DNA from: Escherichia coli
GTDB taxonomy: Bacteria > Pseudomonadota > Gammaproteobacteria > Enterobacterales > Enterobacteriaceae
Direction: 5' to 3' (one strand)
NCBI GenBank assembly: GCA_025544715.1
Contig: GCA_025544715.1_4109.2
Length of the DNA: 64,000 nt
Positions 29,921-37,988 of the stretch are shown here, one piece after another. How positions within the stretch are numbered: the stretch's first letter is position 1; every line of letters begins with the position of its first letter. Under the pieces are notes generated by a model. It worked only from the letters and a program-made list of their open reading frames with translations, was not told the origin of the DNA and did no database searches. The translations under genes and the position numbers were made by a program.

Positions 29921-31057
29921 TTACTTGTTAGCTTTTTCGGCAATTTCACGAAGAGTGTCTTCCAGTTCATAGGAAAGTTGTGCAATTTCCTGTTTAGCAC
30001 GTTCACGTTCCAATTTACCTTTTTTCTCTTCCTCAATAACTGCTTCAATACTGTCAATCATCGTTTTATGTACATTACGCAAGGTTTTAATATCCACAAT
30101 ACCACGGTTGTTTGCCTTTGCTGCATCCAACATATTTGCTGCAACCATTTTAGAGTTAGTTTCCAAAAGACGGTTTGTCTCGTTGTCAATAAGATTACCC
30201 AGTTCATTATCCTTACGTTGACGCTCGGAAATCAACTGTTCAGCCAATTGAGACTTCCATGCTGGAATAACAACGGATTTTAAATCTTCAAACTTAGAAA
30301 CAGTGTTCAAGTTTACTTTTTTCATACTCATCAAGCGTGGACCACTTAGTTCGCACATCATGATAAGACGACGAATCTTATCTTCTTGTTTAGAAAGTGC
30401 TTCACAAATCATCTTTTGCTCTTGAATAGCAAAAGAGTCTACATTTTTGTCTGCTTGCATTTCTACTAGTAATGCATCTTGTGTTTTAGTTACTTCTTCT
30501 AAACCAACTAATGTATCACGTAATTCAAACAAATATTCTTTGTTTTCATTATATGCTTTATCAAGCCATTCACATTCTCCGTGCTGGCGATTAATACCAG
30601 TTTGAAGAGTTTTCATAATTTCATCAATTTGCTCTTTACTGTTTTTGTACTGATCACCGACTTTCTGTTGAGCATTAACAAAGAATTTCTTAATACGACC
30701 AACAATTGATTTATCTTCTTGAAGACTGTCAATATCAACTGCACGAGTCAACGTAAGAATTGTGGTGATTGATTTACCAAACTCGGTATTGTCATCTGTT
30801 ACATTAACTTTAGACATAATTTCATCAGCCAGACGCCCAACAGCAGCACCAGCAGTTGTACCAACAGTATTGATGTTTTGAACTGTTAGAGACATAGTAT
30901 TTCCCTTAACATCTTTCAGTACTGGTAGTGATTTTGTAGTTTGGTTAAAAATATCACTTGCATCAATTGTATGACCTTTAGTCGCAGTTTTAGTAGTACG
31001 TTTTGCTGATTTAGCTGCGGTGGATGCTTTTTTAGGATTGATTTCTTTCTCGGACAT
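29921..31057 (-). CDS. hypothetical protein, Lys/Thr-rich N-terminus, helical
   Basis: 378 aa; first gene downstream of the promoter at 31106-31134. Confidence 0.55.
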   Translation of the reverse strand: MSEKEINPKKASTAAKSAKRTTKTATKGHTIDASDIFNQTTKSLPVLKDVKGNTMSLTVQNINTVGTTAGAAVGRLADEIMSKVNVTDDNTEFGKSITTILTLTRAVDIDSLQEDKSIVGRIKKFFVNAQQKVGDQYKNSKEQIDEIMKTLQTGINRQHGECEWLDKAYNENKEYLFELRDTLVGLEEVTKTQDALLVEMQADKNVDSFAIQEQKMICEALSKQEDKIRRLIMMCELSGPRLMSMKKVNLNTVSKFEDLKSVVIPAWKSQLAEQLISERQRKDNELGNLIDNETNRLLETNSKMVAANMLDAAKANNRGIVDIKTLRNVHKTMIDSIEAVIEEEKKGKLERERAKQEIAQLSYELEDTLREIAEKANK

Positions 31058-31145: not shown

Positions 31146-32273
31146 TTACTCTTTGTTACCATATGCCAGATTACGAATAATCTCTACAGTACTCTCATCT
31201 ACGGCTTTACCTGTCTGTGATTGTAAACGATTGATAATCAAAGGAATAGTAATAGTTTGAATATCTACCATACGATTCATATCAACTTGATATTGCTTAC
31301 TTGTTGCAATAATGCTCGTTTCAGTCATGGATGTGGTGATTCCCATTTTCATAATACGTTCTAATGTTAATTCATATTCAAACGCATCATCCACACAACG
31401 TAGTGCGTATTCACATCCCAACTTCCCATATTCAAGTTCATTTTTGATTTCATGAACTTCGTTTCTAAGTTCTGAAAACATCGTACTAAGACCACTAAAC
31501 TTATTAGTATCATACTTAACTGCTTCATTTAGTGCTTTCATCACTTTTGGCAAATCTGATGGTTGCACTTTGATATCGGTTTTACCAAACAATTTCTGCG
31601 TAAAGGTCGGCTTCAATGGGAACAACGTTTCCAACGCAACAGTAAGGTTATTCATAAGCATTCTAATATAATCACTATGCTGTTGTAATGCTGAGTTAAG
31701 ATCCAATTGACGTTCTGAAATTTGTTGAATCTTAGTTCCAATTTCTTGTGCACAAACTGGTAAGTTTACAAACCAGTCTAGTACTTTTACTGAATTCTTT
31801 TCAATAGTACTAGGGAATTCAACCCATCTTTCAATGTCATCAATTCTGCTATCGTCTGGGTTGATAGGTTTTTTCTTAAGAACAATAGGTGCAGGTACAT
31901 CTGGTGATGTTTGTACCAAGTCTAAACGTGGTTTAGCACGACCTTCTTTCCATTCACGATATTCACGCTCTAATGGCGGTACTGGCATGTTAGGATCAAT
32001 TCTAATATTACTAAAATGAATTTTATCCTTCATTAAATCAAGAACTTTCAGACGTTTATTATCAAAATAGATTTCATCCAATGACAGAGTTTTTACATCA
32101 AATAACGGATTACCCAATGAGTCATAGGTGCGGCGAACAATTACATTATAAATGTATTTTTTGTTTGATGAACGGTCATATTGTTTCAATAAAGAGTTCA
32201 GTACATAATTATAGTTAAATTCTTGAATCTCAACTTCTTTGCCATTTTCAATGAAAAAATATTTACCTTTCAT
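31146..32273 (-). CDS. hypothetical protein
   Basis: 375-aa ORF. Confidence 0.55.
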   Translation of the reverse strand: MKGKYFFIENGKEVEIQEFNYNYVLNSLLKQYDRSSNKKYIYNVIVRRTYDSLGNPLFDVKTLSLDEIYFDNKRLKVLDLMKDKIHFSNIRIDPNMPVPPLEREYREWKEGRAKPRLDLVQTSPDVPAPIVLKKKPINPDDSRIDDIERWVEFPSTIEKNSVKVLDWFVNLPVCAQEIGTKIQQISERQLDLNSALQQHSDYIRMLMNNLTVALETLFPLKPTFTQKLFGKTDIKVQPSDLPKVMKALNEAVKYDTNKFSGLSTMFSELRNEVHEIKNELEYGKLGCEYALRCVDDAFEYELTLERIMKMGITTSMTETSIIATSKQYQVDMNRMVDIQTITIPLIINRLQSQTGKAVDESTVEIIRNLAYGNKE

Positions 32274-32382: not shown

Positions 32383-33188
32383 TTGTTACTTTTATCCTTG
32401 TACCATACAAATGTCTTGACAGGTGGATATTTTTCATTCTTTGGTGGTTCAGGCATGTCGTATACAGTTGCATTTCTAAACTTAAGAATGTATGTGTCCA
32501 TCAAACGGATTATACAATAGTTTAAACATTTTTGTGCTCTTTCTTTCCAAAAATGTTTATATGGTTCTGGACAACCAAGATAATCAAGTTTATACATACT
32601 CATTGCAACTTGCATAAATCTTTGGGCCGAGAATTTACGCTTGTCGATTTTACTTGCCCTATGTTGATCACAGGTCCAGCTTGATACTCCAGGTAAATGA
32701 CAAAACAAATCAAAACTAACCATACTATCAAAGTATTTGTTATGACCATGTAACTCACCATAAAATACTGCTTCAGATACTGTATCATATAATGAGAAAT
32801 TTGAATGTATATGCTCATTATCAAAAATACTTTTTAAATCTTTATAAGTTTCTGGAACTGGTGGTTCAGGTAATACTTCACCAAATACTTCAACACACCA
32901 TATCTTCCATAAACCTTTTGTAAATTTATTTTCTAAATCTCTATCACTATCTATATAAAAAGTTTTTTCATTTATGAAAACTTTTCTTGCCATGTATGCT
33001 TTAAAAATTGCATCTGGATCAATGTCTTCACGATTTACATCATCCCAGCCTTTACCAATTCTTGAAATTTCAAATCTACGCATATACATGCGACATGCTA
33101 AATCTTTAGTAAGGCTGCGACGATACTTTTCATCCTGATGTAATTTGGTTGTTTCATGAAGAGATTTAAGCATATTTAAAATTCTCAT
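32370..33188 (-). CDS. hypothetical protein
   Basis: 272-aa ORF. Confidence 0.55.
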   Translation of the reverse strand: MRILNMLKSLHETTKLHQDEKYRRSLTKDLACRMYMRRFEISRIGKGWDDVNREDIDPDAIFKAYMARKVFINEKTFYIDSDRDLENKFTKGLWKIWCVEVFGEVLPEPPVPETYKDLKSIFDNEHIHSNFSLYDTVSEAVFYGELHGHNKYFDSMVSFDLFCHLPGVSSWTCDQHRASKIDKRKFSAQRFMQVAMSMYKLDYLGCPEPYKHFWKERAQKCLNYCIIRLMDTYILKFRNATVYDMPEPPKNEKYPPVKTFVWYKDKSNKRMH

Positions 33189-33865
33189 CGCAACACCAAA
33201 TACTTCCCGTTTCTTCCAATTACATATTGATCACCACTTCGTAGTACTGTATAGCTTTCCCCTAGTATGGAACTAAGACGCGAAGTGTCTAATTGTGTAT
33301 CATTCTTTAATAACTTTTTCACATATGTTTCTGAAACAAAACCGCTTCCAGTACTGTAGTGTAATTTACCATATGCTGTTTTTAATGTCAACATGTTTCC
33401 TTCTTTGATTACTGAAACACCAGCATAATCAAGGAACTCACTAATTGAACTAGGAATGCCCAAATCAATTCTCTGCTGTATTTCTTCAAAATCAACATCG
33501 ATTGGGTCATTAACACCATATAGTTGTATTTTCCAACCTGGGTCTGGACAAATATTTTCAATAGTTTTAATTAAACGTAAAAGTTTTTCAGGGAATTCGG
33601 CATTTCGTTCCATTTCCACATAAACTTGATATCGACCATCTAAATTTGGTGTTTCTGCTGCTTCTGTATCAACTACATCAATAGGTGATTTTTCAATAAA
33701 AGAAGATAAATCATATGCTGCATCAAAATTGTTAAGAACCTGAAACATAATAACAATATTACTATCTTCAATTTTAGGAGTATATTCATCAACACTAATT
33801 ATAGGATGAATCAAATCTTTGAGAACTTGCGGACGTAAGCCTTGTTCATTTAATTTCTTTTTCAT
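33185..33865 (-). CDS. hypothetical protein
   Basis: 226-aa ORF. Confidence 0.5.
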   Translation of the reverse strand: MKKKLNEQGLRPQVLKDLIHPIISVDEYTPKIEDSNIVIMFQVLNNFDAAYDLSSFIEKSPIDVVDTEAAETPNLDGRYQVYVEMERNAEFPEKLLRLIKTIENICPDPGWKIQLYGVNDPIDVDFEEIQQRIDLGIPSSISEFLDYAGVSVIKEGNMLTLKTAYGKLHYSTGSGFVSETYVKKLLKNDTQLDTSRLSSILGESYTVLRSGDQYVIGRNGKYLVLR

Positions 33866-34428
33866 TACATTCCACCTTCTTGTGTCTCATCCGTTACTTC
33901 CACATCCAAATCTACATCATCACCAGTTACAGGTTCTTCAAAATTTTCTGGTGAATTCATTGGATTACTATTGAATTCTGCTGCCATTAGTTTATATTCA
34001 TCAAAACTTTCTGGATTAATTAAGTTTCGTGGAATCTGCACTCTAACCAATAGTACTGGGATTCTTTCATTTTTTGGTATACGTACCGACCCTGATTGTG
34101 TAGCAACACTTTTCATATCAGCTTGTCGATTAGGATCTTTGATAGGAGTTATTTCATAATCAGCTTTAACATACACTTTAGTACCATGCTTCTCCAAAAT
34201 AGAGAATGCTGTAGGATCAGGGAAATTTTCACGATAGTATTTGAATGTTACAGTACACCAATACTTACTTACAATTGGTCCCTCTACCAACTCACCCTCA
34301 ATAATTCCTTTATACGCATACAAATCATTATCATCGAAATATTTTTCTACAGCAAGAAGTATATCTAACATACCACTGTTATCATACAACTGCTGAATAG
34401 CATTATCTGTATAATCTAAATCGTCCAT
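33865..34428 (-). CDS. hypothetical acidic protein
   Basis: 187-aa ORF with acidic C-terminus. Confidence 0.5.
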   Translation of the reverse strand: MDDLDYTDNAIQQLYDNSGMLDILLAVEKYFDDNDLYAYKGIIEGELVEGPIVSKYWCTVTFKYYRENFPDPTAFSILEKHGTKVYVKADYEITPIKDPNRQADMKSVATQSGSVRIPKNERIPVLLVRVQIPRNLINPESFDEYKLMAAEFNSNPMNSPENFEEPVTGDDVDLDVEVTDETQEGGM

Positions 34429-34526
34429 ATTTTATATTATCCTTAAAAACTAGCACATATAATACTATTTACTACTTTTAAAAAACAACAAAAGGGGTTT
34501 GAATCAAACCCCCCAATTTAAAAGTT

Positions 34527-35171
34527 TTATTTGTAATATTTACCTAGTACTGAATAAATTTTCAATCTAAGATCTGTCCAATTCTCAATGTATTCAAAAT
34601 TACCAGTGTTCTTATACATTGAATTATGAGAACATCCCATCATAACTGACGGAATACCAAGTCCCATTGCAGTTTCAATATTATTGATATAATCATCAAT
34701 CATAAGTTTTACATCATATCTAGACTGTAAATCCTCTAGTGCTTGTTTCTTTGATTCGTTCATTTCGATAATAATAATCTCATCAAAACAGTTTTCACCA
34801 AATTCACGCATTAGGTTTACATTACGTAAAACTTCTCCATAACCTTTTTTGCCACATTTTGTTAGTACTACAAATTTTTCTTTATGAAAACGATCACGTA
34901 GCTCTTGTACAATATCAACTGTATTAGGTTCGACTGGTTTTAACAACCCAAACAAATATGATTGTTGGTTGAATTGTTCAAGAATTTTTTTAACTTCTTG
35001 TTGGGGGACACCCAACCAATCGGATAAATCATATTCTAATGGGTATGGTGTTGATGGTGTGATATTATAAGTTTGTTTTACGAACTCAGAAAGCATACCC
35101 ATATGGTCCAATAGAACTTCATCACAATCAAAAACTATACAACGTGGTTTCATTACATGTTCCCCGAACAA
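34527..35171 (-). CDS. HAD-superfamily hydrolase, putative 5'-nucleotidase
   Basis: N-terminal FDCDEVLLD (DxDx[TV] motif I) and later MIDDY aspartate motif. Confidence 0.55.
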   Translation of the reverse strand: MFGEHVMKPRCIVFDCDEVLLDHMGMLSEFVKQTYNITPSTPYPLEYDLSDWLGVPQQEVKKILEQFNQQSYLFGLLKPVEPNTVDIVQELRDRFHKEKFVVLTKCGKKGYGEVLRNVNLMREFGENCFDEIIIIEMNESKKQALEDLQSRYDVKLMIDDYINNIETAMGLGIPSVMMGCSHNSMYKNTGNFEYIENWTDLRLKIYSVLGKYYK

Positions 35172-36142
35172 ATTAGGTCAATCTCGCACAGAAGTGCACT
35201 GAGATTCATTTCACGGTCAGATACAGTTGCTTGTTTTACAACAGCATCACGAATCTTAACCTTGATTTTCATAAGAGTAATTTCATCAGTACTGAACATT
35301 TCAGCATTACGATACAGATAAGAAAAGAATGCATCCATCTCATCATCAGGGATATTTTGTACAATTTGTTCACGCATTTGGCGAATGTTTCCTGCCTTTA
35401 ATGCTTCAACAATTGCAGTACGATACCCTGCTGAATTTTCAATACTATCTTCAAGTTTTACTAGCTTACCATCAACAACTGAACTTTGCAATACGTTTAG
35501 TGTTTTACGGAAATCAGGATAGGAAGCATTGATATACTTTTGAACTTGTTCAACACTATCATCACTACTCAAATCAACACCTTCTGCTAGAAGAATATTA
35601 TAAATTCGAGTCATGAATTGTTCCATATCATGCTTTTCAATTGTAATAACTTGAACACGAGAAATGATAGGTTTTTGAATTTTATGTGGTTCGTTACTTG
35701 TTAAAATAAAGCGAGCGTTTTCATGGTAGTCTTCCATTACACGTTTCAAACTACCTTGTGCTTTATGGTTCATCTGCTCCATTTCTTCAAGAACAAAGAT
35801 ACGATACCTACCAAAACATGATAACTTTGCTGCGGCATCGATTTTATCACGAACTGCATCAATACCCTCATCTGACATGTTAAGTGTAGTTACATCACTT
35901 GGGTCAAGGTGTCCATTCTGTACCAATCCATTAATGAGAACTTTGATCGCAGATGTTTTACCAGTTCCTGCTGGGCCAAAAAACCCAATATGTGGAATGT
36001 CACCAGTTTTAATCCATTCTTCCATTTTCTGGCGTAGTGCATCATTTTTTGATACATAATCTTCCATTGATTGTGGGCGATATTTTTCAGTCCATAGTGT
36101 GGTCATTTTTATTTCCTTATGTGTACGTGTTATAGAATCCAA
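35153..36142 (-). CDS. 44: sliding-clamp loader large subunit (T4 gp44 / RFC-like AAA+ ATPase)
   Basis: RFC box WTEKYRP, Walker A GPAGTGKTS, overall collinear with T4 gp44 as recalled. Confidence 0.85.
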   Translation of the reverse strand: MDSITRTHKEIKMTTLWTEKYRPQSMEDYVSKNDALRQKMEEWIKTGDIPHIGFFGPAGTGKTSAIKVLINGLVQNGHLDPSDVTTLNMSDEGIDAVRDKIDAAAKLSCFGRYRIFVLEEMEQMNHKAQGSLKRVMEDYHENARFILTSNEPHKIQKPIISRVQVITIEKHDMEQFMTRIYNILLAEGVDLSSDDSVEQVQKYINASYPDFRKTLNVLQSSVVDGKLVKLEDSIENSAGYRTAIVEALKAGNIRQMREQIVQNIPDDEMDAFFSYLYRNAEMFSTDEITLMKIKVKIRDAVVKQATVSDREMNLSALLCEIDLICSGNM

Positions 36143-36402
36143 TCGGCTGAATTATATAATAAAGCCGTGAAAAGTTCTTCTGTCATTTCCAATTGATTTA
36201 ATAAAAAATTAAAAGAATTTGCCTTATTTTTAATCCCAGTACTTTCAGCTTGGGCCGATGCAACTAATAAAACTTTAAACATATCATGTGAAACTTCATA
36301 TACATATTTTGTATTTTTTCTATCTTCAAACATGAATCTTCCGTTTTTTGATACTAATGTTACATCTTTGAAACTAAATTTTCCATCATCCGTTATCATC
36401 AA
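36130..36402 (-). CDS. hypothetical protein
   Basis: 90-aa ORF overlapping the start of the clamp-loader gene. Confidence 0.4.
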   Translation of the reverse strand: MMITDDGKFSFKDVTLVSKNGRFMFEDRKNTKYVYEVSHDMFKVLLVASAQAESTGIKNKANSFNFLLNQLEMTEELFTALLYNSADWIL

Positions 36403-36455
36403 AATGTGTCCAAATAAAAAGCCCAGATATTAATCCGAGCTTTAATTATATTTTA

Positions 36456-36782
36456 TCAACGTCCAAAGGTTAGCATTTTAGTGCGTGGGTCTTCATCAGA
36501 TACTAAACTAACAGCGGCAGGGTAATCAACTAGGTTTAGTTCAATACCATCAACCTCAATCGTTCTTGACCAACGACCATGATCAATTAAAATCCATTGA
36601 CCTTCTTTAATATCAGTAATGTCTTCGCCTACTGAATATACTTTAGCCCAGCGAGAACGAATACCTCTAATTTTACCGTCATCGTTTGTTAAAACGATTC
36701 CACCTGCTGTTTTGCGTTCACCATGTTCCAGTTCAGTGACTAGTACTTTACCTTTACATGCAGTCATTACTTTATTAGACAT
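36456..36782 (-). CDS. GroES-like co-chaperonin (Cpn10)
   Basis: GKVLVTELEHGERKTAGGIVLT parallels GroES [21 protein letters not shown]; 108 aa. Confidence 0.7.
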   Translation of the reverse strand: MSNKVMTACKGKVLVTELEHGERKTAGGIVLTNDDGKIRGIRSRWAKVYSVGEDITDIKEGQWILIDHGRWSRTIEVDGIELNLVDYPAAVSLVSDEDPRTKMLTFGR

Positions 36783-37198: not shown

Positions 37199-37741
37199 CT
37201 ACCATTTCAAAAATTCATTAACATCGAGTTCGTATTTCAATGAATCTACCATGTGTAGACCAATCAAAAACAAACAGTATGATGCAACCGAGCTTCCACG
37301 CCCTAGACCCCAAAAGATCTCATTTTCTTCCATATAATCAACAAGCCATATCATACATCTTAATAGCTTTGTCATATTATAATATTCATATAAATCTAGT
37401 TCATACTCAACACGCTTTCGTGCTTCATCTGATGTACATTTTTGTAAGAAAAAGTCACGTAGATTTATATTGTCGTATACTGGATCATAACGCCAAAGTT
37501 CATGATTTTTATCATGCTCGATAGTATAATCCAGCATACGTTGTTCTAAGCCAAATTTTTTACAGTTATCATTGAATTTCAACCTTTCAGGTTCATCAAT
37601 TTCCTGCAATTGTAAGTACTGGATATCCGCACCGCAATTGATTGCATAAACTACTGCGTTAAGATTACATTTTACATCACCATTGGGACTTATAAATCTG
37701 TTTCCTTGTACTTTCATTTTTCTTTTTCTGGGCCTCTTCAT
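37199..37741 (-). CDS. hypothetical protein with a DnaE-palm-like GxGRGS segment
   Basis: C-terminal FWGLGRGSSVASYCLFLIGLHMVDSLKYELDVNEFL resembles E. coli DnaE [35 protein letters not shown] (from memory); ORF ends before the catalytic aspartates. Confidence 0.45.
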   Translation of the reverse strand: MKRPRKRKMKVQGNRFISPNGDVKCNLNAVVYAINCGADIQYLQLQEIDEPERLKFNDNCKKFGLEQRMLDYTIEHDKNHELWRYDPVYDNINLRDFFLQKCTSDEARKRVEYELDLYEYYNMTKLLRCMIWLVDYMEENEIFWGLGRGSSVASYCLFLIGLHMVDSLKYELDVNEFLKW

Positions 37742-37988
37742 TGTCAGTTAGATAAGAATCCATGTCGAAGATACATGAGTCTTCTTCATCATAAACAGAT
37801 TTTTCTTTTTGTCCTTGACGAAGTTCTAGTTCAGCATAACATTGATTTAACACAGTTTGCATATTACCAATAATCATATCACTCATACCAGCGGCACGGG
37901 CTGAAGTTATACGCATTGACTGTTCATTAATTTTCAACTGTAGTTCTTTCTCCGTCATCCCAGACGGGTCAAAAAACGGATTAAACAT
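37677..37988 (-). CDS. hypothetical protein
   Basis: 103-aa ORF. Confidence 0.4.
   Translation of the reverse strand: MFNPFFDPSGMTEKELQLKINEQSMRITSARAAGMSDMIIGNMQTVLNQCYAELELRQGQKEKSVYDEEDSCIFDMDSYLTDNEEAQKKKNESTRKQIYKSQW

Follow-up and report, generated by a model that had tools for sequence, protein, structure and literature searches.

A gp44-type clamp-loader locus in a 121Q-like jumbo phage and the virion-associated 187-aa protein encoded beside it

It is very likely that the gp44-type clamp-loader locus analysed here is made of two unrelated neighbouring units, that the 187-aa protein encoded beside the clamp-loader ATPase is virion-associated and is not the clamp-loader small subunit, and that the sliding clamp and the small subunit (the clasp) are probably encoded outside the 64,000-nucleotide stretch of DNA under study (hereafter, the window). 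The window has 99.2% identity to the RaK2-like jumbo myovirus 121Q, a coliphage. The gp44-type gene, a HAD-family gene and the 187-aa ORF lie there in succession, all on the minus strand. In the first unit, an RFC/gp44-type AAA+ gene with intact catalytic motifs would be translationally coupled to an NT5C-type HAD gene, and its transcription is predicted to end at a conserved intrinsic terminator. The second unit would start at a late-type promoter motif and encode an overlapping pair of 187-aa and 226-aa proteins which, as the proteomics of orthologues shows, are built into the virion or packaged with it.

Genes 44 and 62 are adjacent in T4. A sequence-only reading of the window had noted a gp44 homologue, an overlapping HAD gene with a DxDxV motif, and an acidic 187-aa ORF of the same length as T4 gp62, with no recognisable gp62 at the locus. 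All of these observations held up, the last of them in a Pfam scan and in searches with custom gp62 HMMs. On the other hand, the suggestion that the 187-aa ORF might point to gp62 was not supported. That RaK2-like phages have no recognisable gp62 or gp45 is not a new observation. It has been in print since 2013 and was published again in 2017; homologues of the two proteins are described as undetectable in these phages by the papers on RaK2 (PMC3622015) and on CBB (PMC5259590). The outcome is largely ordinary, since the 187-aa gene encodes a virion protein and the candidate for the small subunit lies elsewhere. The suspected gp62 gene belongs to a known virion protein family, and little is changed by this.

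The clamp-loader ATPase gene and the HAD gene

The gp44-type gene was located at 35153-36106 on the minus strand and encodes 317 aa from an ATG codon. The mechanical ORF is slightly longer (35153-36142, TTG start, 329 aa), and the ATG at 36106 is the start in all annotated relatives. The ORF aligned over its full length with phrog_168, 'clamp loader of DNA polymerase', at an E-value of 1e-78. The alignment joins residues 12-326 of the 329-aa TTG-start ORF to profile positions 6-312 of 314 and takes in the C-terminal collar region. Matches in the PDB included RFC3 (1.5e-31), T4 gp44 (3.4e-19) and DnaX (about 1e-11), so that the protein is nearer to the RFC small subunits than to T4 gp44. The AAA+ motifs are Walker A (GPAGTGKT), Walker B (IFVLEE) and sensor-1 (ILTSN), with SRV at the position of SRC, while the Pfam Gp44_lid model gave 21 bits, under its cutoff of 27. 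Thus, by its motifs and its full-length profile alignment, the gene is an RFC/gp44-type clamp-loader AAA+ ATPase gene. A phmmer search of the 121Q genome revealed no paralogue and no other RFC-like AAA+ gene. Positions B to E of the clamp loader are presumably all filled by the product of this one gene. When the protein was used as a query for related loci, only close relatives were returned.

Compared with T4 gp44 and the archaeo-eukaryotic RFC small subunits, the protein has the same AAA+ module, Walker A and B motifs, sensor-1 and SRC-type arginine finger, together with the full-length clamp-loader HMM alignment. In contrast to theirs, its gene has no adjacent clamp or clasp gene, and its apparent coupling partner is a HAD nucleotidase gene. 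This HAD gene occupies 34527-35153 on the minus strand (208 aa, ATG start; 34527-35171 with a TTG start). The stop codon of the gp44-type gene and the ATG of the HAD gene have one base in common (TAATG), and this overlap is likely to couple the translation of the two genes. The adjacency of the two genes is also found in RaK2, CBB and Turkey5.

The HAD protein has the DxDxV nucleophile motif as FDCDEV and a DD motif further on. It scored 31.0 bits with Pfam NT5C (PF06941), above the cutoff of 24.8, and matched phrog_420 with an E-value of 2.7e-42. On the motif and the curated cutoff, the product of 34527-35153 is predicted to be a HAD-superfamily phosphatase of the NT5C, or 5'(3')-deoxyribonucleotidase, type. 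However, its similarity to the NT5C-type deoxyribonucleotidases is weak (31 bits), and phrog_420 carries no annotated function.

A terminator-like hairpin with a T-run lies directly 3′ of the HAD stop codon (34492-34514, minus strand). The scan gave a stem of 10 pairs, 5 of them G-C, closed by a loop of 3 and followed by a T-rich tail. The position of the hairpin is kept in four related phage loci while the stem sequences differ. For CBB, just the 3′ arm and the T-run of the hairpin fall within the stretch that was read. A GTAAATA motif resembling a late promoter follows at 34466-34472 on the minus strand, 38 nt before the 187-aa ORF begins. GTAAATA(A/G) is conserved in the related loci L013-L016 and in CBB, and RaK2 retains the TAAATA core. 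The motif is close to the ATAAATA consensus that has been reported for CBB and GAP32 in front of structural genes (PMC5259590). On the gene strand of the window, 14 of the 27 [AGT]TAAATA sites are intergenic, while intergenic DNA makes up 8.9% of the window. Five sites were mapped to 121Q genes; four of them precede genes annotated as structural, and the fifth lies before gene 49, at the head of the structural genes 50-51. These signals suggest that the 187-aa ORF lies in a transcription unit separate from the gp44-HAD unit.

The 187-aa ORF and its 226-aa partner

The 187-aa ORF (33865-34428, minus strand; 121Q gene 62) encodes an acidic protein with a pI of 4.26. It was found that its residues 3-187 match phrog_12928, 'virion structural protein', with an E-value of 2.4e-89. 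It is a member of this family, with 98.9-99.5% identity to phAPEC6 gp150c and to the product of 121Q gene 62 and with the same neighbours. The family has no solved structure, and members have been detected in virions by mass spectrometry (MS). In purified virions of phAPEC6, gp150c (98.9% identical) was represented by 5 peptides with 34.8% coverage, and in those of CBB, CBB_334 (52.9% identical) was represented by 7 peptides with 40% coverage. On the other side, the RaK2 orthologues, ORF168 and ORF169, go unmentioned in the RaK2 proteomics, and neither the RaK2 paper nor that of Hua et al. 2017 has proteomic data on the orthologues.

The 187-aa ORF is followed by a 226-aa ORF (33185-33865, minus strand; 121Q gene 63), and the stop codon of the first overlaps the start codon of the second, again as TAATG. 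The product of the 226-aa ORF matched phrog_13138 with an E-value of 2.5e-121. The phAPEC6 counterpart, gp149c (99.6% identical), was also detected in virions by MS, with 4 peptides and 29.2% coverage, and the CBB counterpart, CBB_335, is annotated as a structural protein. The pair is adjacent in Agrobacterium phage Atu_ph07 as well, as homologues of 177 and 240 aa (HMM E-value of 6e-30). The 187-aa protein is a virion-associated, probably late protein of the phrog_12928 family. As to the MS data in general, detection in virions is no proof of a structural role, and the phAPEC6 virions also gave a topoisomerase subunit.

The AlphaFold model of the 187-aa protein (mean pLDDT 76; blocks over residues ~21-130 average at least 87) has a confident alpha/beta core and consists of two N-terminal helices followed by six beta strands and a disordered acidic tail. 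A Foldseek search of the PDB with this model gave nothing better than an E-value of 0.05 and a TM of 0.2. Neither gp62 chains nor clamp loaders were among the 50 best matches listed, all with E-values of 0.83 or less.

T4 gp62 (PF16790 Phage_clamp_A, phrog_225; PDB 3U5Z) also has 187 aa, is also acidic overall and is also encoded downstream of a gp44-type gene on the same strand. In contrast to T4 gp62, the 187-aa protein has no similarity to gp62 profiles and no matching fold, its core being a beta-sheet, and it is found in virions and would be expressed from a separate late unit. The Pfam search of the 187-aa ORF returned no family at E-values up to 0.1, and PF16790 was absent for the ORFs of the locus too; as a positive control, T4 gp62 matched PF16790 with an E-value of 3.5e-77. 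Two gp62 profiles were then compared with the 187-aa family by hhalign. The probability was 0.55% with the narrow profile (41 sequences) and 0.08% with the broad one (65 sequences), for whose HMM the 150 best were taken of the 1450 family members that a full-library profile search returned. The corresponding P values were 0.11-0.66, and 0.64 within the set of 18 control families. The family conserves a single tryptophan, W57, which is part of SKYW in a predicted strand, and no counterpart of the gp62 GKW (Trp111, YGKW) or of Trp17 was found in the ORF.

Besides 33865-34428, gp62 was sought in the whole 121Q genome. Against all ORFs of at least 40 aa in the window and in the assembled genome, the narrow and the broad HMM found nothing, with best E-values of 0.05-0.5. 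Precomputed Pfam hits for the genes within 10 kb of the gp44-type gene included no gp62 or clamp family, even a faint one. The agreement in length between the 187-aa ORF and T4 gp62 is a coincidence.

Candidates for the clasp and the clamp

From the biology of T4 and RFC, the clamp loader would be expected to need a clamp and a fifth, non-AAA+ clasp subunit. Both are most likely encoded outside the window, with gene 13 of 121Q as the candidate for the clasp and gene 613 as that for the clamp. The sequence-only reading had offered three explanations, namely a highly divergent gp62, a gp62 encoded elsewhere or a different small subunit. A gp62 that is both highly divergent and encoded elsewhere is now favoured, at the level of a candidate, gene 13. 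Half of the result that would have refuted that reading was obtained, in that the fold of the 187-aa protein proved to be unrelated to clamp loaders, while a clear gp62 homologue elsewhere in the genome was not demonstrated.

Gene 613 (phrog_12062; L011:3996-4727) lies outside the window and adjoins PolB. Its orthologues are annotated as 'sliding clamp' in three recent GenBank records, and the gene is located beside PolB both in 121Q and in Atu_ph07 (E-value of 4e-14). Sequence tests of gene 613 against gp45 and known clamps were all negative. The protein was also split into halves in a search for an internal duplication, which gave no signal; this test is uninformative, since the halves of T4 gp45 also fail to detect each other.

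Gene 13 (phrog_11758, 281 aa; L003:11442-12287) lies outside the window, about 34 kb from the gp44-type gene. It is flanked by the UvsW helicase gene and by PolIII-fragment and primase genes, in a recombination and replication module. The chance is not far from even that the clasp belongs to the gene 13 family and is a gp62 relative with an inserted ferredoxin/ACT-like domain. The Turkey5 orthologue XMR01863.1 is annotated as 'sliding-clamp-loader small subunit' in this one record, on which no paper was found in the literature. The gp62 HMM ranked gene 13 5th among 1799 ORFs, and hhalign of the gene 13 family with gp62 gave P values of 0.0012-0.007, compared with 0.043-0.78 for 18 control families. 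Gene 13 and gp62 align colinearly over three weak motifs, and an invariant FGKW falls on the YGKW of T4 gp62, whose Trp111 contacts the template strand (PMC8121543). The gene 13 protein begins with MFDFS and a disordered linker, a start similar to the MSLFEDD of gp62. Furthermore, Atu_ph07 has a 169-aa structural homologue of gene 13 that lacks the insert; when looked for beside the RFC gene of that phage, it was not found in 130 kb of sequence.

Several results argue against this relationship. PF16790 is absent from the families listed for 74 members of the gene 13 family. The gene 13 profile did not find gp62 among PDB sequences, the top matches being chance ones to antibodies. The structural model of gene 13 (pLDDT 81) is helical with an inserted ferredoxin-like domain, and gp62 was absent from the 50 best Foldseek matches listed in each of PDB and BFVD; the model was searched with the insert included, and the PDB list consists mostly of ACT/ferredoxin-like matches to the insert. 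When the gp62 profile was compared with 608 single-sequence ORFs by hhalign, gene 13 fell outside the top 15, where the top P of 0.005 represents background. A P of 0.0012 would be expected by chance about once among some 600 phage proteins. A reverse HMM search from gene 13 placed 24-31 gp62 members in the top 40, and control profiles placed 0 to 22; this enrichment was discounted as independent evidence, since the members share one motif. Two other sequences were considered in these comparisons. Gene 65 (31146-32273) gave the best P of the controls with gp62, 0.043 over 134 columns, which is not significant in 18 tests. AUZ95074 of Atu_ph07, with a gp62 HMM E-value of 0.04, was dropped after inspection of the alignment.

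It is unlikely that the phage has no dedicated clasp, with the gp44-like protein forming a homo-oligomer or with subunits or the beta clamp borrowed from the host. The single RFC-like gene in the genome and the failure of every library model to detect gp62 are consistent with such an arrangement, as are the split minimal PolIII-alpha fragments and the epsilon-like exonuclease encoded by the phage; the use of a host clamp is conceivable in view of these DnaE-like and DnaQ-like genes. However, each of the structurally characterised clamp loaders reviewed in PMC3331839 and PMC8121543 is a hetero-pentamer whose A subunit is distinct. Moreover, RFC and gp44, rather than DnaX, are the nearest matches of the ATPase, and a clamp candidate encoded by the phage is conserved beside PolB.

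It is less likely still that the small partner is the product of the 89-aa ORF immediately upstream of the gp44-type gene (36130-36399, minus strand; 121Q gene 59). This ORF sits, on the same strand and with a short gap, between the gp44-type gene and a terminator-like hairpin (36418-36443, minus strand) that separates it from a GroES-like gene, and it is conserved as RaK2 ORF165 and CBB_331. In contrast, its product has no similarity to gp62 (hhalign P of 0.2), matched only its own unannotated family, phrog_16539, in library scans, and falls short of the smallest full-length gp62 seen (~108-125 aa). Least credible of all is that the 187-aa ORF encodes an extremely divergent gp62-type clasp binding four gp44-like ATPases: it has the length of T4 gp62 and follows the gp44-type gene at a distance of 0.7 kb on the same strand, the two families are near each other in Atu_ph07 too (3.3 kb apart), and gp62 is fast-evolving and mutation-tolerant (PMC8121543), but the hhalign values, the beta-sheet core with no GKW, the conserved terminator and separate late-type promoter motif after the gp44-HAD pair, and the presence of the family in two independent virion proteomes all speak against it.

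For the clasp and clamp encoded outside the window, a fuller assignment can be proposed tentatively. The RaK2-like clasp may be the gene 13 family, a remote gp62 relative that standard libraries fail to recognise, with the GKW tryptophan and a ferredoxin/ACT-like insert, and the clamp may be the gene 613 family; the 45-44-62 cluster of T4 would then be dispersed into three loci. Confirmation of both would mean that these phages possess a complete T4-style clamp system, which is also required for gp55-type late transcription. A confirmed gene 13 clasp would also provide a very divergent clasp for comparing how clamp loaders recognise primer-template junctions. A useful by-product for annotators is a correction to phrog_12062 (the likely clamp) and phrog_11758 (the candidate clasp), which Pfam, PHROGs and the majority of the ~75 related GenBank records still give as hypothetical.

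Clamp-loader locus of a 121Q-like phage

Escherichia phage 121Q (KM507819/NC_025447, genus Asteriusvirus), a RaK2-like jumbo myovirus of 348.5 kb with 62 related records, shares 99.2% identity with the 6-kb stretch around the locus. Window position x lies at about 81975-x in 121Q, with the strands reversed; the minus strand of the window carries the genes discussed and 111 of the window's long ORFs. The full 121Q genome was assembled for the searches.

A gp44 homologue is indeed present at 35153-36142 (minus strand, TTG start; counted from the ATG at 36106, which the annotators chose, the protein has 317 aa). Over its full length it aligns with phrog_168, "clamp loader of DNA polymerase" (E 1e-78), and its nearest PDB entries are RFC small subunits (1.5e-31), followed by T4 gp44 (3.4e-19) and DnaX (about 1e-11). 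The AAA+ motifs are intact: Walker A GPAGTGKT, Walker B IFVLEE, sensor-1 ILTSN, and SRV at the SRC position. It is the only RFC-like AAA+ gene in the whole 121Q genome. The next gene was confirmed as an overlapping HAD-family hydrolase, an NT5C-type phosphatase with the motif FDCDEV and a PF06941 score of 31 bits (cutoff 24.8), whose ATG overlaps the stop codon of gp44 by a single base (TAATG).

The Pfam scan of the gp44, HAD and 187-aa ORFs gave no match to PF16790, the gp62 family, and no gp62 or clamp family was found among the precomputed Pfam matches of the neighbouring genes. Since the three ORFs were verified and a gp62 signal was absent, the observation that no gp62 is recognisable at this locus holds. 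It is correct but already published: homologues of gp45 and gp62 were undetectable in RaK2 (PMC3622015) and likewise in CBB (PMC5259590).

Upstream of gp44, a conserved 89-aa ORF (36130-36399, minus strand, phrog_16539) lies between gp44 and a terminator-like hairpin at 36418-36443. As this arrangement leaves no room for a promoter, the ORF may be co-expressed with gp44 and HAD. Two genes upstream of gp44 is a GroES/Cpn10-like gene (36456-36782, minus strand; Pfam E 2e-5; phrog_931 "head morphogenesis"). Further upstream, a fragment of 172-180 aa (37199-37988, minus strand; PF07733 E 2e-9) covers the NTPase domain of bacterial DNA polymerase III alpha only in part, and its start is overlapped by a 103-aa ORF by about 40-65 nt, depending on the start codon chosen. 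The fragment belongs to the split "minimal PolIII alpha" noted by Iyer et al. 2021, whose second half is encoded outside the window by 121Q gene 16.

The 187-aa ORF compared with gp62

The acidic ORF at 33865-34428 (minus strand, pI 4.26) was represented by an alignment of 68 homologues, all but one at least 46% identical; those on long contigs lie mostly on contigs of about 350 kb. The profile search of this ORF with gp62 models gave no match. In hhalign, the probability was 0.55% against a T4-type gp62 alignment and 0.08% against a broad alignment of 65 sequences, built from a full-library profile search that returned 1450 family members. As a control, 18 gene families of this neighbourhood were compared with the gp62 profile; the 187-aa family scored P 0.64. 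The best control score (P 0.043 over 134 columns) belongs to the family of 121Q gene 65, a 375-aa hypothetical protein (31146-32273, minus strand, phrog_13312), and is not significant among 18 tests.

The AlphaFold2 model built from the homologue alignment has a mean pLDDT of 76, with 10-residue blocks over residues 21-130 or so averaging at least 87. Its N-terminus forms two helices, the core has six beta strands and a further helix, and the acidic tail is disordered. A Foldseek search against the PDB, which includes T4 gp62 (3U5Z/8UH7), gave a best E of 0.05 with a TM of 0.2 and no clamp-loader chain among the matches listed; the predicted fold is thus unrelated to the clasp subunit.

A virion-associated protein pair

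The 187-aa ORF matches phrog_12928, "virion structural protein" (E 2.4e-89), and the overlapping downstream 226-aa ORF matches phrog_13138 (E 2.5e-121). The corresponding 121Q genes 62 and 63 are both annotated as structural proteins. In purified phAPEC6 virions (PMC7247149), gp150c (98.9% identical to the 187-aa ORF) was detected with 5 peptides and 34.8% coverage, and gp149c (99.6% identical to the 226-aa ORF) with 4 peptides and 29.2% coverage. CBB_334, which is 52.9% identical to the 187-aa ORF, was found in the CBB virion proteome with 7 peptides and 40% coverage (PMC5259590). Orthologues of the pair are not mentioned in the RaK2 proteomics. The two genes (33185-34428) are neighbours in Agrobacterium phage Atu_ph07 as well (L036:29247-30499, HMM E 6e-30), a distant phage in which the members of the pair are 26-30% identical to their counterparts.

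The sequence-only reading had allowed that 33865-34428 could be a divergent gp62. The null hhalign results, the unrelated beta-core model and the virion detection of orthologues lead me to reject this with high confidence; the equal length of T4 gp62, 187 aa, is a coincidence.

Between HAD and the 187-aa ORF, a terminator-like hairpin of 10 pairs with a T-run (34514-34492, minus strand) lies directly 3′ of the HAD stop codon. It is kept in place in four related IMG/VR loci with differing stem sequences, and its 3′ arm and T-run are present in the stretch of CBB that was read. On its 3′ side, 38 nt before the ATG of the 187-aa ORF, is a conserved GTAAATA(A/G) motif (34466-34472, minus strand). 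A similar consensus, ATAAATA, has been reported for CBB and GAP32, where it precedes structural genes. Of the 27 [AGT]TAAATA sites that the window carries on the gene strand, 14 are intergenic, a strong enrichment given that intergenic DNA makes up 8.9% of the sequence, and several sites of this intergenic type precede genes annotated as structural. The arrangement supports a putative transcription unit for the 187-aa ORF separate from gp44-HAD. The two proteins are best read as a late-expressed, translationally coupled, virion-associated pair.

The gene string of the pair also holds a TelA-like (toxic anion resistance) gene (29921-31057, minus strand); standalone TelA genes in gammaproteobacterial jumbo phages were mentioned by Iyer et al. 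2021. In Atu_ph07, an RFC-like gene is located just 3.3 kb from the pair.

Candidate clasp and clamp genes outside the window

Most likely, the small subunit is encoded elsewhere and is very divergent. A tentative candidate, with a little less than an even chance of being the gp62-like subunit, is 121Q gene 13 (L003:11442-12287; 281 aa; phrog_11758, unknown function), flanked by the UvsW gene on one side and by the PolIII-fragment and primase genes on the other. One GenBank record, that of Turkey5, names its orthologue "sliding-clamp-loader small subunit". The gp62 HMM ranked gene 13 fifth among 1799 ORFs, and hhalign against gp62 gave P 0.0012-0.007, compared with 0.043-0.78 for the 18 control families; however, P 0.0012 is about the chance level for one protein in about 600. 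The alignment is weak but colinear over three motifs, and the invariant FGKW of gene 13 is aligned to YGKW of T4 gp62, whose Trp111 supports the unpaired bases of the template and, with one other residue, is the most sensitive to mutation (PMC8121543). The N-terminus of gene 13 carries an MFDFS peptide, and its AlphaFold model (pLDDT 81) shows a helical protein into which a ferredoxin/ACT-like domain is predicted to be inserted. Substantial evidence nevertheless speaks against gene 13: PF16790 is absent from the families listed for its 74 family members, its profile gave only chance antibody matches against PDB sequences, and no gp62 is among the best 50 Foldseek matches listed for the PDB or BFVD, the PDB list being dominated by the inserted domain.

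No clamp or gp62 annotation exists in the full 121Q genome. A candidate for the gp45-type sliding clamp is gene 613 (L011:3996-4727; 243 aa; phrog_12062, "unknown function" in PHROGs), 0.55 kb downstream of PolB. Its orthologues are annotated "sliding clamp" in Turkey3, Turkey5 and fEgEco12, only 3 of about 75 related GenBank records; for fEgEco12, proteins were annotated by BLASTP and HHpred. All sequence tests of gene 613 against gp45 were negative. The family is 71-100% conserved, and a homologue adjoins PolB in Atu_ph07 too (E 4e-14). A second GroES-like gene, 121Q gene 615, adjoins gene 613.
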